A stretch of DNA of 64,000 nucleotides from Escherichia coli. Its GTDB lineage: Bacteria; Pseudomonadota; Gammaproteobacteria; Enterobacterales; Enterobacteriaceae. The stretch lies in assembly GCF_024700885.2 (NCBI RefSeq), contig NZ_CP117016.1. One strand, given 5' to 3'. The position numbers and the translations under genes are program-made. Of the stretch, positions 60,490-64,000 are shown in pieces. Numbering within the stretch: position 1 is the stretch's first letter; each line of letters opens with the position of its first letter. The notes beneath the pieces are model-generated. The model saw only the letters and a program-made list of their open reading frames with translations, made no database searches and was not told where the DNA came from.

Positions 60490-63400
60490 TCAGAACTCTT
60501 GCAAACACAATGCGGATGAACGTGACGCTATCGAGAGATGACCATCTCCTGGATAAAATATCATACCGCTGTCGAGCCAATAATGTTCAGAGCGAAATAT
60601 TCCGTCATAAGAAGTCAGATTACCATATTCACCCCATAACGAACCTACTTTTCGCGGGACAGCACCGCTAGTTGCACTCCCCACTATATCCGTACTAGAC
60701 GGTAATCTATAGCCCCTATCACTACAATATGAATTAATTACACTCCATGCTTCCTGAAAATCCCCTTGGGGTAAAAACCATTTCTGCAGTGAGAATCTAT
60801 ATGTGACTTTATTCCCTTTATTGCTTTTCGGCGTTCCTGTAATAGTAATTTCGTTCTTTAGAATATATTCTAAAGTCACCATACCATTACTATCGACCTG
60901 AATACCCTGTATACCGCTGGTCCAATTATAATCCGTGTTTTTCATATTGTGGATTAATATCAGTGTAAATTTAGCACCATCAAACCCTGTTTTTGGAAAA
61001 CCATCTGCCGCCCTGAATTTTGCACCATTAACACTCAGCGACTCGACTTCCACAAAAGGAAGGATGGTATAAGACGGTTGCCCGTCTACATACCAACCAT
61101 TAATATGTAGATATGAGTTTAAGTTTTCTCCTTCTTTGTAGGCCATATAGGTACGCTCATATCTGCCATCACCTACAAATGTCCAACTGGACCAATGTTT
61201 CTTTTCCACATTTTGTAAGTACACTGCATCATCTGTCAGCAAATCCAGACCGTCATTCACAGGATTACCAAATTCATCAGATAATAAAACACTGACAGGT
61301 ATATCCGCCCCAGCTACCACTAAAACTTCGTGTATACGAAGCTGTGAACGAAACTTACTTACTTCACCTCTGTTAATAGTGTAGCTTTTTGAATAATTGG
61401 CATCGACCCAACCCGCCATCTTCAGTTGCGCATTCAAATTCGCTTCCGCAAAATGTGCCATATACTGTCTTTGATATTGCCCATTGCCATTGTATATCCA
61501 ATTATTGCCTTGAATAGAATCAGCGTTCCTGACTTGTACGTTTTCCTCATTAAGCTGAACGACACCATCAGTAATAAAGTTACCCTGGGCATCTTTAAGA
61601 ACAACGGTCACCGTTATGCTATCCCCAGCGATATATTTCGTTTTGTCCGTGACTATCGTGGATTGAGATTTTGCCGCCGCACCTGGTTGTATCCCGTATA
61701 ATGAGGACTTAATCTCCGTTCCCCATGTTTTTAATTTCAGACTGGCAACCAGATTTTCCTCGGCAACCCATGCTGTCCAGACAATGGTATATTCACCATT
61801 ATTCTGCTCGACCCACTGCAGAGAATCGGGAGTTGCGCCACCTACCGCGAAATTATCGATATAAGACTCGATGACTTCTGATGTCAGCCCTAAAGCAGGG
61901 TTATCAAACTCATCCCGCAACGTTATTGTGACGGTTAATGGCTCCCCAGCGATATATGCCAATTTATCTGTCCTGATAGCAGAATTTGCCTGCACCGGAG
62001 CACCGCTGTGGATGGAATAACTCTCTGATTGTTTACTGCTGCCCCATTCAGACAACTTCAGCGTCGCGTGGTGAGAGTCTCCCGCCATTTGCGCCGACCA
62101 TGTAGCAGTATAAACACCGGCAGTTTCAGACCATCCTCCTGAACGTACGGCTCCTTCTACTGTTACGTTATCACCAGACAATAAGGACTCGCCCCCTTCA
62201 ACCAGGTTACCGTGCGCGTCTTTCAGCGTCACAGCGACGGTTATAGTGTCACCAGCGGTGTAGGCGTTTTTATCCGTAGCGATAGTTGATGTGGCTTGCG
62301 CCGGAGAACCGGACTGTATGTCATAGCGATCTGACGTTACGCCATCACTCCACGTCTGCAATTGCAGGTTGGCGTGCTGATTGGTACTGGCAATCGTCGC
62401 CATTCGGGTTGTGGTATACACGCCACCTGATTCAACCCAGCTTCCCGTTTCTGACGGGTCAGTGCCAGCCACCGTCAGCACACCATCAGCGGCTAACTGT
62501 GAAGCTGCACCGGTTACCAGATTATCGAACGCATCCCGGAGCGTTACCGTGATGGTGATTGTCTCTCCAACCGTATAGTTCGACTTATTTGTTTCAACGG
62601 TTGAAGTGAGCTGCGATGCATCACCAGGTACAAAGGTGACATTCTGGCTCTGGCTGCTGTTGTTGATGCTGGCGGTGACTGTACTGGTGCCCGCCGTCTG
62701 GCTGGTGACACTGATCTCCACCGTGCCATCCGGCTCTGTAATCACCGTCGGAGCAACCGTTGCGCCGTTGCCTGCCGTCACGCTGACCGTCTGTCCGGCA
62801 AGCGCATTACCGAACGCATCGGTGACCCTCGCCCGCAGCATATTCGCCATTGCGCCGTCTGCCACTGAGTTATCCCGGGTGACCACCAGATCCGCGATCT
62901 GCGCCGTCCTGACATCCGCGATAAACATCACGTTCTGGCTCGCGGTGCTGTTGTTGATAGTTGCAGTGACCGCACTGGTTCCGGCGGTCTGGCTGGTGAC
63001 AGAGATCTCCACCGTGCCGTCCGGCTGCGTGGTGACCGTCGGAGCAGTCGTGGCACCGTTGCCTGCCAACACGCTGACCGTCTGTCCGGCAAGCGCATTA
63101 CCGAACGCATCGGTCACCCTCGCCCGCAGCATATTCGCCATTGCGCCGTCTGCCACTGAGTCGTCCTTAATGACCACCAAATCAGCGATCTTCGCCGTCC
63201 TGACATCGGCGATAAACATCACGTTCTGGCTCGCGGTGCTGTTGTTGATAGTTGCAGTGACCGCACTGATTCCGGCGGTCTGGCTGGTGACAGAGATCTC
63301 CACCGTGCCGTCCGGCTCTGTAATCACCGTTGGGGCAGTCGTTGCACCGTTGCCTGCCAACACGCTGACCGTCTGTCCGGCAAGCGTATTACCGAACGCA

Positions 63401-64000
63401 TCGGTCACCCTCGCCCGCAGCGTGTTCGCCGTCGAACCGTCCGCCTCTGAACCATCCTTAATAACCACCAGATCCGCTATCTTCGCCGTCCTGACATCGG
63501 CGACAAACGTCACGTTCCGGCTCAGGCTGCTGTTGTTGATGCTGGCAGTGACTGTACTGACTCCCGCCGTCTGACTGGTGACTGAGATCTCCACCGTACC
63601 GTCCGGCTGCGTGGTGACCGTCGGGGAAACCGTTGCACCGTTGTCCGCCAACACGCTGACCGTCTGTCCGCCCAGCGTATTACCGAATGCATCGGTCACC
63701 CTCGCCCGCAGCGTGTTCACCGTCGAACCGTCCGCCTCTGAACCATCCTTAATGACCACCAGGTCCGCGATCTGCGCCGTGCTGGCATCGGCGATAAATG
63801 TCACATCCCGGCTCTGACTGCTGCTGTTGATGCTGGCAGTGACTGTACTGACTCCCGCCGTCTGACTGGTGACAGAGATCTCCACCGTGCCGTCCGGATG
63901 CGTGGTGACCGTCGGAGCGACCGCTGCACCGTTGTCCGCCAACACGCTGACCGTCTGTCCGGCAAGTGCATTACCGAACGCATCGGTGACCCTCGCCCGC
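60490..64000 (-). CDS. air: invasin/intimin-family surface adhesin, 3' portion (gene continues beyond window): tandem bacterial Ig-like (Big_1) domains plus C-terminal C-type-lectin-like domain
   Basis: Minus-strand ORF >1151 aa with no stop before the window end; about 4.8 near-identical 97-aa repeats followed by five diverged about-100-aa Ig-like modules and a Cys-containing C-terminal domain. Symbol (air/eaeX) is recollection-based. Confidence 0.8.
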   Translation of the reverse strand, partial: RARVTDAFGNALAGQTVSVLADNGAAVAPTVTTHPDGTVEISVTSQTAGVSTVTASINSSSQSRDVTFIADASTAQIADLVVIKDGSEADGSTVNTLRARVTDAFGNTLGGQTVSVLADNGATVSPTVTTQPDGTVEISVTSQTAGVSTVTASINNSSLSRNVTFVADVRTAKIADLVVIKDGSEADGSTANTLRARVTDAFGNTLAGQTVSVLAGNGATTAPTVITEPDGTVEISVTSQTAGISAVTATINNSTASQNVMFIADVRTAKIADLVVIKDDSVADGAMANMLRARVTDAFGNALAGQTVSVLAGNGATTAPTVTTQPDGTVEISVTSQTAGTSAVTATINNSTASQNVMFIADVRTAQIADLVVTRDNSVADGAMANMLRARVTDAFGNALAGQTVSVTAGNGATVAPTVITEPDGTVEISVTSQTAGTSTVTASINNSSQSQNVTFVPGDASQLTSTVETNKSNYTVGETITITVTLRDAFDNLVTGAASQLAADGVLTVAGTDPSETGSWVESGGVYTTTRMATIASTNQHANLQLQTWSDGVTSDRYDIQSGSPAQATSTIATDKNAYTAGDTITVAVTLKDAHGNLVEGGESLLSGDNVTVEGAVRSGGWSETAGVYTATWSAQMAGDSHHATLKLSEWGSSKQSESYSIHSGAPVQANSAIRTDKLAYIAGEPLTVTITLRDEFDNPALGLTSEVIESYIDNFAVGGATPDSLQWVEQNNGEYTIVWTAWVAEENLVASLKLKTWGTEIKSSLYGIQPGAAAKSQSTIVTDKTKYIAGDSITVTVVLKDAQGNFITDGVVQLNEENVQVRNADSIQGNNWIYNGNGQYQRQYMAHFAEANLNAQLKMAGWVDANYSKSYTINRGEVSKFRSQLRIHEVLVVAGADIPVSVLLSDEFGNPVNDGLDLLTDDAVYLQNVEKKHWSSWTFVGDGRYERTYMAYKEGENLNSYLHINGWYVDGQPSYTILPFVEVESLSVNGAKFRAADGFPKTGFDGAKFTLILIHNMKNTDYNWTSGIQGIQVDSNGMVTLEYILKNEITITGTPKSNKGNKVTYRFSLQKWFLPQGDFQEAWSVINSYCSDRGYRLPSSTDIVGSATSGAVPRKVGSLWGEYGNLTSYDGIFRSEHYWLDSGMIFYPGDGHLSIASRSSALCLQEF
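62600..64000. repeat. in-frame tandem direct repeats, period 291 bp, at least 4.8 copies, inside the adhesin gene
   Basis: Motif gatctccaccgtgcc recurs at 62713, 63004, 63295, 63586 and 63877 (spacing exactly 291 bp); surrounding sequence nearly identical between copies. Confidence 0.9.

Follow-up and report, generated by a model that had tools for sequence, protein, structure and literature searches.

The window analysed here, 64,000 nt of Escherichia coli DNA, ends inside a large adhesin gene and a repeat array within it. The array belongs to the 3' part of iatC (= eaeX = air), which encodes an inverse autotransporter (type Ve) adhesin and sits in the selC-B/eip island of E. coli. iatC is convergent with eilA, with 49 nt between the two genes, and eilA and nepI flank iatC in all 16 loci inspected. 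The eaeX and eip genes have been reported to be under EilA control (PMC4210603, PMC7058095). The features of this part of the window are as follows:

58743 to 60440, plus strand: eilA, HilA-family regulator, from its open reading frame and annotation
60490 to 64000, minus strand: 3' 3,511 nt of iatC (eaeX/air), frame open through 63999
60493 to 62628, minus strand: C-terminal non-array passenger, 712 aa, with Pfam Invasin_D3 and Invasin_D4 matches
62629 to 62919, minus strand: repeat unit 25, the final array unit in gene orientation, one Big_1 domain (Pfam E = 5.6e-21)
62920 to 63210, minus strand: repeat unit 24, Big_1, with 85% identity to its neighbour unit 25 and 91% identity to unit 23
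63211 to 63501, minus strand: repeat unit 23, from a Big_1 match and the unit register
63502 to 63792, minus strand: repeat unit 22, from a Big_1 match and the unit register
63793 to 64000, minus strand: repeat unit 21, 208 of 291 nt present, cut by the window end

The iatC stop codon lies at 60490-60492 and the coding sequence extends past the window end, with the gene start ~9.35 kb beyond it. In 700+ E. coli genomes the corresponding place carries the RefSeq annotation iatC, and ~755 complete E. coli genomes are positive for the gene. As reference for the full gene we used E. coli elppa4 (locus L001), which differs from the window by 3 mismatches in 17,511 nt and whose 12,864-nt iatC encodes 4,287 aa. 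Residues 1-1150 of this protein score 2549.5 bits with the NCBIfam IatC equivalog-domain model NF040978 (cut-off 2400). For lack of the N-terminus, the fragment in the window reaches 366 bits. An IAT_beta match (PF11924; E = 3.2e-108) covers residues 149-423 of elppa4 IatC, a domain that lies outside the window.

Tandem Repeats Finder reports a single array at 62642-64000 (period 291, 4.7 copies, 0% indels, 88% matches, score 1892), and a repeat search finds 5 copies from 62632 in exact 291-nt steps. With the unit register set by a TDAFGN motif that recurs every 97 aa exactly, head-to-tail 291-bp units span 62629-64000 in codon and domain register; the period equals 97 codons, and the minus-strand frame is open across the whole array in the window. 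These results confirm what a first-pass annotation of the DNA had proposed, namely tandem, in-frame repeats at exact 291-bp (97-codon) spacing, and its further proposal that the units encode Ig-like domains of an adhesin is borne out by the Big_1 matches and the IatC model score. The boundary of the array is sharp, since the adjoining 62341-62631 is just 24-29% identical to the units. A plus-strand ORF at 62606-63574 was rejected as a gene, being antisense to a strongly supported CDS and within periodic GC-rich sequence. The window shows the promoter-distal fifth of the array only: beyond unit 21, the near-identical genome elppa4 has 20 further units, and its full array spans 24.9 copies (L001 16153-23411), or 25 units over 7.3 kb. 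Because the window ends inside the array, its own copy number was deduced from genomes that differ from it at 1-3 positions.

At the protein level, each 291-nt unit corresponds to a single Big_1 Ig-like domain of 97 residues, with Pfam E values from 1e-14 to 6e-21, and the array forms the middle of the passenger, between constant N-terminal and C-terminal parts. The N-terminal constant part (1,150 aa) comprises the beta-barrel anchor and about six diverged Ig domains. The C-terminal part holds older, degenerate Invasin_D3-like Ig domains of ~105 aa each, together with degenerate 44-nt repeat cores at spacings of 321, 306 and 315. The window part of the protein has five Big_1 matches, as well as an Invasin_D4 match at residues 989-1047 of the fragment. 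A C-type lectin cap has been reported at the IatC terminus (PMC6714894); a Pfam search of the window fragment did not separately detect it.

The nearest solved sequence to the units is Yersinia invasin 1CWV (E = 2e-15), and a two-unit AlphaFold model of moderate confidence (pLDDT 70, pTM 0.49) is all-beta, with intimin D0-D1, invasin, InvE, InvD and FdeC as its best structural matches. Variable residues did not sort clearly between strands and loops (mean entropy of 0.53 for strands and 0.36 for the remainder), and we draw no structural conclusion from this mapping, because the model is of only moderate confidence. Intimin/invasin-family proteins are thus the best matches of the IatC units in both sequence and structure, and Yersinia ruckeri YrInv/YrIlm, invasin 1CWV, intimin 6TPL/1F00, InvD 5LDY and FdeC 4E9L share the Ig-like fold and type Ve secretion. 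They differ in their repeats, however: invasin and intimin carry few, diverged Ig domains in fixed number, whereas YrIlm has near-identical repeats and is cited as a case in which almost identical Ig repeats hamper assembly (PMC6714894). IatC is intermediate, with many units.

The divergence between units bears directly on the age of the array. The five copies in the window are pairwise 82.1-91.1% identical, that is, they show 26-52 differences per 291 nt, and among all 25 units of elppa4 identity ranges from 77.7% to 95.2% (median 85.2%), with zero identical pairs. Between units, dS is ~0.36 and dN/dS ~0.3, and 75-90% of the polymorphic columns are common to arrays of different lineages. Furthermore, when a local-duplication origin was tested in 8 arrays, adjacent units were no more alike than distant ones. 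The first-pass annotation had described near-identical copies with scattered substitutions, which does not agree with 82-91% identity in the window and a full-array median of 85%, and had read them as a recent expansion, a claim not supported by the dS, the shared polymorphic columns and the lack of closeness between neighbours. An exact 291-nt spacing free of indels, and some perfect tracts of up to 275 bp, would suit a recently expanded, highly unstable hotspot, but we consider that account highly improbable, given also that many unrelated isolates share an identical array and that repeat number is conserved within ST69 (PMC7058095).

Copy number was counted in 16 intact iatC genes from complete genomes, which carry 25, 25, 25, 24, 24, 20, 19, 19, 18, 17, 16, 15, 12, 7, 5 and 2 units. 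Flank lengths are constant over these genes (1,150 aa N-terminal, 712-717 aa C-terminal), and each of the 16 has an intact reading frame and a length that falls on a 97n grid. The copy-number polymorphism that had been predicted from the window therefore exists, extending from 2 to 25 units in exact 291-nt multiples between constant flanks. Length classes also recur in independent complete assemblies: at least 12 have the 12,864-nt gene, at least 11 a gene of 10,827 nt and at least 7 one of 11,118 nt. Moreover, at least 8 independent complete assemblies, from different countries and from human, dog and chicken hosts, share an identical 12,864-nt gene, so the array is a slowly varying stalk rather than a rapid on/off switch. 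An apparent extra unit in many genomes (3,802 vs 3,511 nt, 96.8% identity) was rejected as an artefact of joined offset repeat alignments; in each of the genomes concerned the full gene aligns as a single segment at 100%.

In short-read assemblies, the array is either reduced to one chimeric unit or interrupted by a break. The N-terminal 1,150 aa were searched against a large protein collection dominated by draft assemblies, whose matches serve as evidence of assembly collapse only and not as a length census. Exactly one chimeric unit is present in 40 of the 75 best E. coli matches, and the others are truncated in the array, with at most 8 units; the longest protein among the matches listed has 2,011 aa or less. 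For example, protein P0001 has termini identical to those of the 25-unit protein, with a unit 1/unit 25 chimera between them. The matches also included homologues from E. albertii. The warning that this stretch is assembly-prone was well founded, and because of such collapse and breakage, calls of eaeX/iatC presence, length and intact versus truncated state in draft genomes are unreliable.

This behaviour raises the question of whether the array itself, or the copy-number differences between genomes, could stem from mis-assembly. The abundance of seemingly complete one-unit proteins points that way, no one-unit gene being found among the matches listed (~100 complete genomes); additionally, the three deletions and the conversion on the window's allele, described below, each come from a single assembly, and collapse or polishing artefacts would likewise be expected at the stretches of greatest similarity between units. 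Nevertheless, we judge mis-assembly to be a very unlikely source of the array or of its variation. The 12,864-nt gene is identical across independent assemblies from different hosts and countries, the 11,118-nt and 10,827-nt classes each recur in 7-11 assemblies, all 16 genes remain intact on the 97n grid, and a unit divergence of ~15% is easily resolved by long reads.

Closely related genomes show how the array changes. Six genomes with the window's allele show 0 SNPs across 11,589 nt outside the array, made up of the rest of the gene and 6 kb of flanks, and structural changes in the array are the sole differences between them. GPEC403-625 lacks 13 units, with the junction in a 17-bp identity tract of units 2/15; GPEC874 lacks one, with the junction in a 72-bp tract of units 14/15; and F344 also lacks one, with the junction in a 191-bp tract that is the longest offset-1 identity tract of the array. 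In SW4848, an exact copy of units 21-24 takes the place of 814 bp in units 3-6, with 0/934 mismatches at a +18-unit shift; a slip of the register by one or two units was rejected as the source of this divergence, as only +18 gives 0 mismatches. The O166:H15 allele carries a 12-bp in-frame deletion in the array. One allele with 0 SNPs elsewhere thus occurs with 25, 24, 24 and 12 units. These sequence comparisons support the view that the three in-frame deletions are independent and that copy-number change on the window's allele is recent, and, with the junctions lying in identity tracts, they lend support to the copy-number change, by slippage or recombination, anticipated by the first-pass annotation. 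Among the genomes compared, no direct gain of units was caught.

Taken together, we consider it likely, with a probability of roughly 85%, that the repeats in the window are the promoter-distal end of a 25-unit Ig array in iatC whose unit number varies by in-frame unit exchange or slippage. Because the units keep an exact length and ~85% identity, they share many perfect tracts, from 25 to >190 bp; at offset 1, tracts of at least 25 bp number 47 in the full array and 11 in its window part. Misaligned homologous exchange or replication slippage within such tracts would delete whole units in frame, and presumably would also add them, while aligned non-reciprocal exchange (gene conversion) would shuffle variants among units. 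Either RecA-dependent recombination or RecA-independent slippage could drive unit exchange, and the ~15% divergence between units probably keeps its rate modest.

Being repetitive, coding for a surface protein and lying in a virulence island, iatC might instead be taken for a contingency locus, in which the adhesin is switched on and off at high frequency by phase variation. Repeat changes at such loci shift the frame or the promoter, whereas the iatC unit is 97 codons long, a multiple of three nucleotides, and the gene is intact in 16 of 16 cases. Phase variation is rejected because every observed change is in frame; moreover, arrays are stable across many isolates and contain no short-sequence repeat, leaving a probability for this alternative that is close to negligible.

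The variable in-frame array has parallels in several known systems. The gene at the same place between eilA and nepI in the selC-B/eip island is known as IatC, EaeX or Air (EcSMS35_4024 in SMS-3-5, air in EAEC 042), and the proteins of SMS-3-5 and 042 have the same beta-barrel, Big_1 repeats and terminal lectin-like region. They differ in size, the present allele encoding 4,287 aa with 25 units, compared with 2,934 aa in the characterised SMS-3-5 IatC, which would correspond to ~11 units. The SMS-3-5 protein is surface-exposed and promotes biofilm (PMC6714894), and an eaeX mutant of EAEC 042 shows reduced adherence (PMC7058095). iatC, its Big repeats and their variable number are thus already published, and the basic picture of the gene is unchanged. 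The number of Big repeats was reported to differ between strains (PMC7058095), whereas Goh et al. found no evidence for a variable tandem-repeat number in IatC, though proteins of 2,459-2,965 aa are listed (PMC6714894). Complete genomes resolve this discrepancy in favour of variation.

Periscope proteins (SasG, Rib, Sgo_0707; Whelan et al. 2021, PMC8201768) are likewise single chains with a stalk of tandem foldable domains encoded by long DNA repeats; their repeat number is likewise strain-variable via intragenic recombination, and their length is proposed to set tip projection. A periscope review also covers inverse autotransporters with BIg repeats (PMC9704523). In IatC, too, each long DNA repeat encodes a full folding domain (25 x 291 nt, each Big_1), and the repeat number varies between closely related strains, from 2 to 25 units overall and between 25, 24, 24 and 12 on one allele. 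In typical periscope arrays, adjacent SHIRT domains are 82-100% identical at the protein level and often >95% at the DNA level, whereas IatC units are mosaic and 78-95% identical at the DNA level (median 85%), a level below the high identity that defines the class, yet with abundant perfect tracts of 25 to >190 bp. Group B streptococcal alpha C/Rib and streptococcal M protein likewise change size by in-frame repeat loss via homologous recombination (PMC9704523), but differ from IatC in being anchored by sortase in Gram-positive bacteria and in having identical repeats. They are further set apart by a demonstrated immune selection for shorter forms.

In enteroaggregative and extraintestinal E. 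coli, the large surface adhesin IatC/EaeX/Air has been linked to adherence and biofilm, and its stalk differs in length by an order of magnitude from strain to strain. By analogy with related stalks, unit number would set the distance between the outer membrane and the terminal binding domain. The five-domain rod of invasin measures 18 nm. Scaled from this rod at ~3.6 nm per Ig domain, the array would reach roughly 7 to 90 nm, a span that could affect clearance of O-antigen or capsule by the tip and host recognition.

Beyond their number, the units also exchange sequence variants. All four gametes are seen in 68% of biallelic informative site pairs, a fraction that climbs from 0.44 for sites <20 nt apart to 0.82 for those >200 nt apart, and the observed local compatibility was reached in 0 of 2000 permutations. 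Pooled arrays contain 132 distinct units among 142. Furthermore, same-index units of different alleles are 84.3% alike versus 84.7% for random pairs, even though the flanks are 95-98% identical. On these patterns, the units are recombinant mosaics of variants common to several lineages. The shared pool of mostly two-state variants, the lost positional orthology and the fact that neighbours are no closer than distant units would suit a tentative and rather doubtful reading, in which the array is kept at a steady state with ~85% identity among units in all lineages and at any copy number. The pattern would then suggest a balance between frequent conversion and an anti-homogenising force, which could be selection against identical neighbouring domains or mismatch-repair suppression between diverged tracts.

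Such mosaicism could also mean that gene conversion mainly diversifies the exposed stalk sequence antigenically, with length change as a side effect. The large share of distinct units, the loss of likeness between same-index units of alleles with closely similar flanks, and the 814-bp conversion-like replacement in SW4848 would all be expected from such diversification. The dN/dS of ~0.3, however, gives no sign of positive selection over the whole unit, and the variable residues are mostly conservative two-state alternatives, so that antigenic diversification as the main outcome appears rather unlikely. GC3 reaches 0.755 in the array, compared with 0.55 and 0.42 for the parts of iatC on either side, and of 22 W/S sites at third positions, 18 have G/C as the major allele, a silent-site composition that would fit GC-biased gene conversion within a single bacterial gene.

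The tandem repeats near the window end belong to iatC (also named eaeX or air), which encodes an inverse autotransporter (type Ve) adhesin on the minus strand, its frame open from 63999 to 60490 with the stop codon at 60490-60492. Because the gene extends past the window end, the first-pass annotation saw its 3' part only. An NCBIfam search of this part indicates the inverse autotransporter adhesin IatC, and Megablast found the stretch in 752 of 5,426 complete E. coli genomes, always annotated as iatC or 'EaeX/Air'. In E. coli elppa4, whose locus (L001) has three mismatches to the final 17,511 nt of the window and stands in for the full gene, iatC spans 12,864 nt (4,287 aa). 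The N-terminal 1,150 residues score 2549.5 bits with NF040978 (cut-off 2400) and contain the inverse-autotransporter beta-barrel (E = 3e-108), each 97-residue unit matches one Pfam Big_1 domain (E from 1e-14 to 6e-21), and the C-terminal 712 residues match Invasin_D3 and Invasin_D4. Among solved sequences, the best match to two units is Yersinia invasin 1CWV (E = 2e-15). An AlphaFold two-unit model is all-beta at moderate confidence (pLDDT 70), with intimin D0-D1, invasin, InvE, InvD and FdeC as its best structural matches. The object belongs to the IatC/EaeX/Air family, which is named, annotated and partly characterised. The SMS-3-5 IatC is exposed at the cell surface and promotes biofilm (PMC6714894), mutation of eaeX in EAEC 042 reduces adherence (PMC7058095), and eaeX is regulated by EilA (PMC7058095, PMC4210603).

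The array occupies the following positions, with units numbered 1-25 in gene orientation:

Window 62629-64000, minus strand: 3' end of the array, with units 25, 24, 23 and 22 complete and unit 21 in part (208 nt)
L001 16153-23411: full elppa4 array, 24.9 copies
L001 gene nt 3451-10725: the same array in gene coordinates

Tandem Repeats Finder detected one strong array in the window (62642-64000; period 291, 4.7 copies, 88% matches, 0 indels, score 1892), and a repeat search placed five copies from 62632 at a spacing of exactly 291 nt; the exact periodicity and lack of indels are as first described. The array boundary is sharp, since the preceding 291 nt share only 24-29% identity with the units. 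In the elppa4 gene, the TDAFGN motif occurs 25 times at an exact 97-residue spacing. The first-pass annotation overstated the likeness of the copies by calling them near-identical: pairwise identity is 82.1-91.1% among the five window copies and, over all 300 unit pairs of the full array, has a median of 85.2% (minimum 77.7%, maximum 95.2%), with no identical pair. Nor does its claim of a recent expansion stand. Nei-Gojobori estimates between units (dS ~0.36, dN ~0.105, dN/dS ~0.3) point to units of old origin that evolve under purifying selection. A 322-aa antisense open frame opposite the repeats (window 62606-63574, plus strand) most likely reflects the periodic GC-rich sequence rather than a gene.

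The units are moreover recombinant mosaics, as follows from the distribution of their variable sites. Of the 291 alignment columns, 124 are polymorphic, mainly two-state, and 68% of biallelic informative site pairs show all four combinations, a fraction that climbs from 0.44 at <20 nt to 0.82 at >200 nt; when site order was permuted, the observed local compatibility was reached in 0 of 2000 trials. Even with 15% divergence between units, the array abounds in perfect tracts. Those of at least 25 bp at a one-unit offset number 11 in the window part (longest 60 bp) and 47 in the full array (longest 191 bp), and an offset of 18 units yields a perfect tract of 275 bp.

Unit number varies widely between strains, bearing out the proposal of in-frame Ig-like domain repeats of variable number. 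Among 16 iatC loci fetched from complete genomes, all intact, the genes carry 25, 25, 25, 24, 24, 20, 19, 19, 18, 17, 16, 15, 12, 7, 5 and 2 units of 97 aa, flanked by an N-terminal part of 1,150 aa in all and a C-terminal part of 712-717 aa. The same gene lengths turn up repeatedly in independent assemblies: at least 12 have the 12,864-nt class, at least 7 the 11,118-nt class and at least 11 the 10,827-nt class. This range supports Fox et al., who reported strains differing in Big-repeat number (PMC7058095), and contradicts the remark by Goh et al. that variable repeat number lacks evidence (PMC6714894). The shortest intact gene seen, that of E. coli F2_81 (6,213 nt), has two units irregularly spaced at 111 aa, and whole-unit loss does not explain its ~14 extra residues.

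Public protein records give another picture, which confirms the earlier warning that the stretch is assembly-prone. Among the top 75 E. coli matches to the N-terminal part, in a collection drawn mostly from draft assemblies, no protein exceeds 2,011 aa; 40 are 'complete' proteins (1959, 1963 or 1964 aa) with exactly one unit, and the remainder are truncated at no more than eight. For example, the match P0001 has termini identical to those of the 25-unit protein, with a single chimeric unit between them in which the first 13 residues come from unit 1 and the last 87 from unit 25. Among the ~100 complete genomes listed, none has a one-unit gene. These one-unit chimeras and in-array truncations are products of short-read collapse, so public lengths and 'partial' annotations of IatC/EaeX are unreliable.

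Recent change can be followed on the window's own allele. Six genomes carrying it show no differences in 3 kb of each flank, the 3,450-nt 5' part or the 2,139-nt 3' part, yet differ from one another within the array. The recent array events, each from one assembly and known from assembled sequence alone, are:

GPEC403-625: 13 units missing (3,783 nt); junction in a 17-bp identity tract common to units 2 and 15
GPEC874: one unit missing; junction in a 72-bp tract, units 14/15
F344: one unit missing, an event distinct from that in GPEC874; junction in a 191-bp tract, units 14-15/15-16
SW4848 (L007): full length; 125 mismatches, all within 814 nt of units 3-6 (gene nt 4187-5000)
O166:H15 strains: 12-nt in-frame deletion in unit 19 and one SNP

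Array rearrangement is the dominant kind of change on this background. Both single-unit losses lie where neighbouring units are most alike, as homology-dependent exchange or slippage predicts; the F344 junction is the longest offset-1 identity tract of the array. The replaced segment in SW4848 matches units 21-24 exactly (0 of 934 mismatches when shifted by +18 units) and reflects either intragenic gene conversion or an error in polishing or assembly. Its pattern matches the expected trace of conversion, with a donor that includes the window's units.

Between lineages, the arrays have lost positional correspondence. Same-index units of elppa4 and XH990 share 84.3% identity and random pairs 84.7%, while the non-array parts of these genes are 95-98% identical. 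A unit of another allele usually differs from the nearest elppa4 unit at 20-40 of 291 positions, and 75-90% of the polymorphic columns of any array are polymorphic in elppa4 too. In every array examined, from 5 to 25 units, the median identity between units is 84-86%, and adjacent units were no more alike than distant ones. Additionally, the genes of WP4-S18-ESBL-07 (L004) and L001 are identical along their final 3,831 nt, which cover units 21-25 plus the C-terminal part, and different in everything upstream; this implies an inter-allele recombination breakpoint inside the array. Base composition sets the array apart as well: GC3 reaches 0.755 there but only 0.55 and 0.42 in the 5' and 3' parts of iatC, respectively, and the surrounding island is 35-40% G+C. 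Pooling 13 alleles gave 135 distinct units; at sites with A/T versus G/C alleles, G/C is the commoner state at 18 of 22 third positions but only 13 of 28 first and second positions. A chimeric origin of the array would fit this pattern, as would GC-biased gene conversion.

The array is no fast switch. Repeat number is reported to be conserved within ST69 (PMC7058095), and an identical 12,864-nt gene recurs in eight or more complete genomes whose hosts were humans, a dog and chickens from several countries. A divergence of 15% should depress RecA-mediated exchange through mismatch-repair editing; for short-range tandem deletions in E. coli, a RecA-independent route is possible. In its behaviour, the protein resembles the 'periscope protein' class, although the repeats of that class are typically more alike than iatC units; a review of the class explicitly covers inverse autotransporters with variable BIg repeats (PMC9704523). 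What the analysis adds is direct evidence that in-frame deletions and conversion have recently affected the window's very allele.

The iatC locus is the published selC-B/eip island (PMC7058095): in elppa4, eilA and nepI lie on either side of the gene, eip type III translocator genes adjoin, and selC lies upstream. Several further features were observed in the window:

61607-62592, minus-strand coding sequence: degenerate older repeat in the C-terminal part of iatC, with 44-nt cores that lie 321, 306 and 315 nt apart and are 61-70% alike, representing diverged Invasin_D3-like domains; unlike the 85%-identical array, this part is constant in length in 16 of 16 alleles
60441-60489: 49 nt between the stop codons of convergent eilA (plus) and iatC (minus), where a shared bidirectional terminator would be expected
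48879-48969: tRNA-Sec (selC)
49053-49181: rhuM pseudogene fragment directly after selC, left over from island integration; the backbone genes setC, yicL, nlpA and yicS separate selC and this fragment from the eip genes and iatC
30956-31233, plus strand: BRO-family and DnaD-like pseudogene fragments in the yicC-yicG interval of the matching RefSeq record, a small prophage remnant
21371-21409, minus strand: JUMPstart RNA element (Rfam RF01707, 55 bits) upstream of the waaQ LPS-core operon, where it is expected
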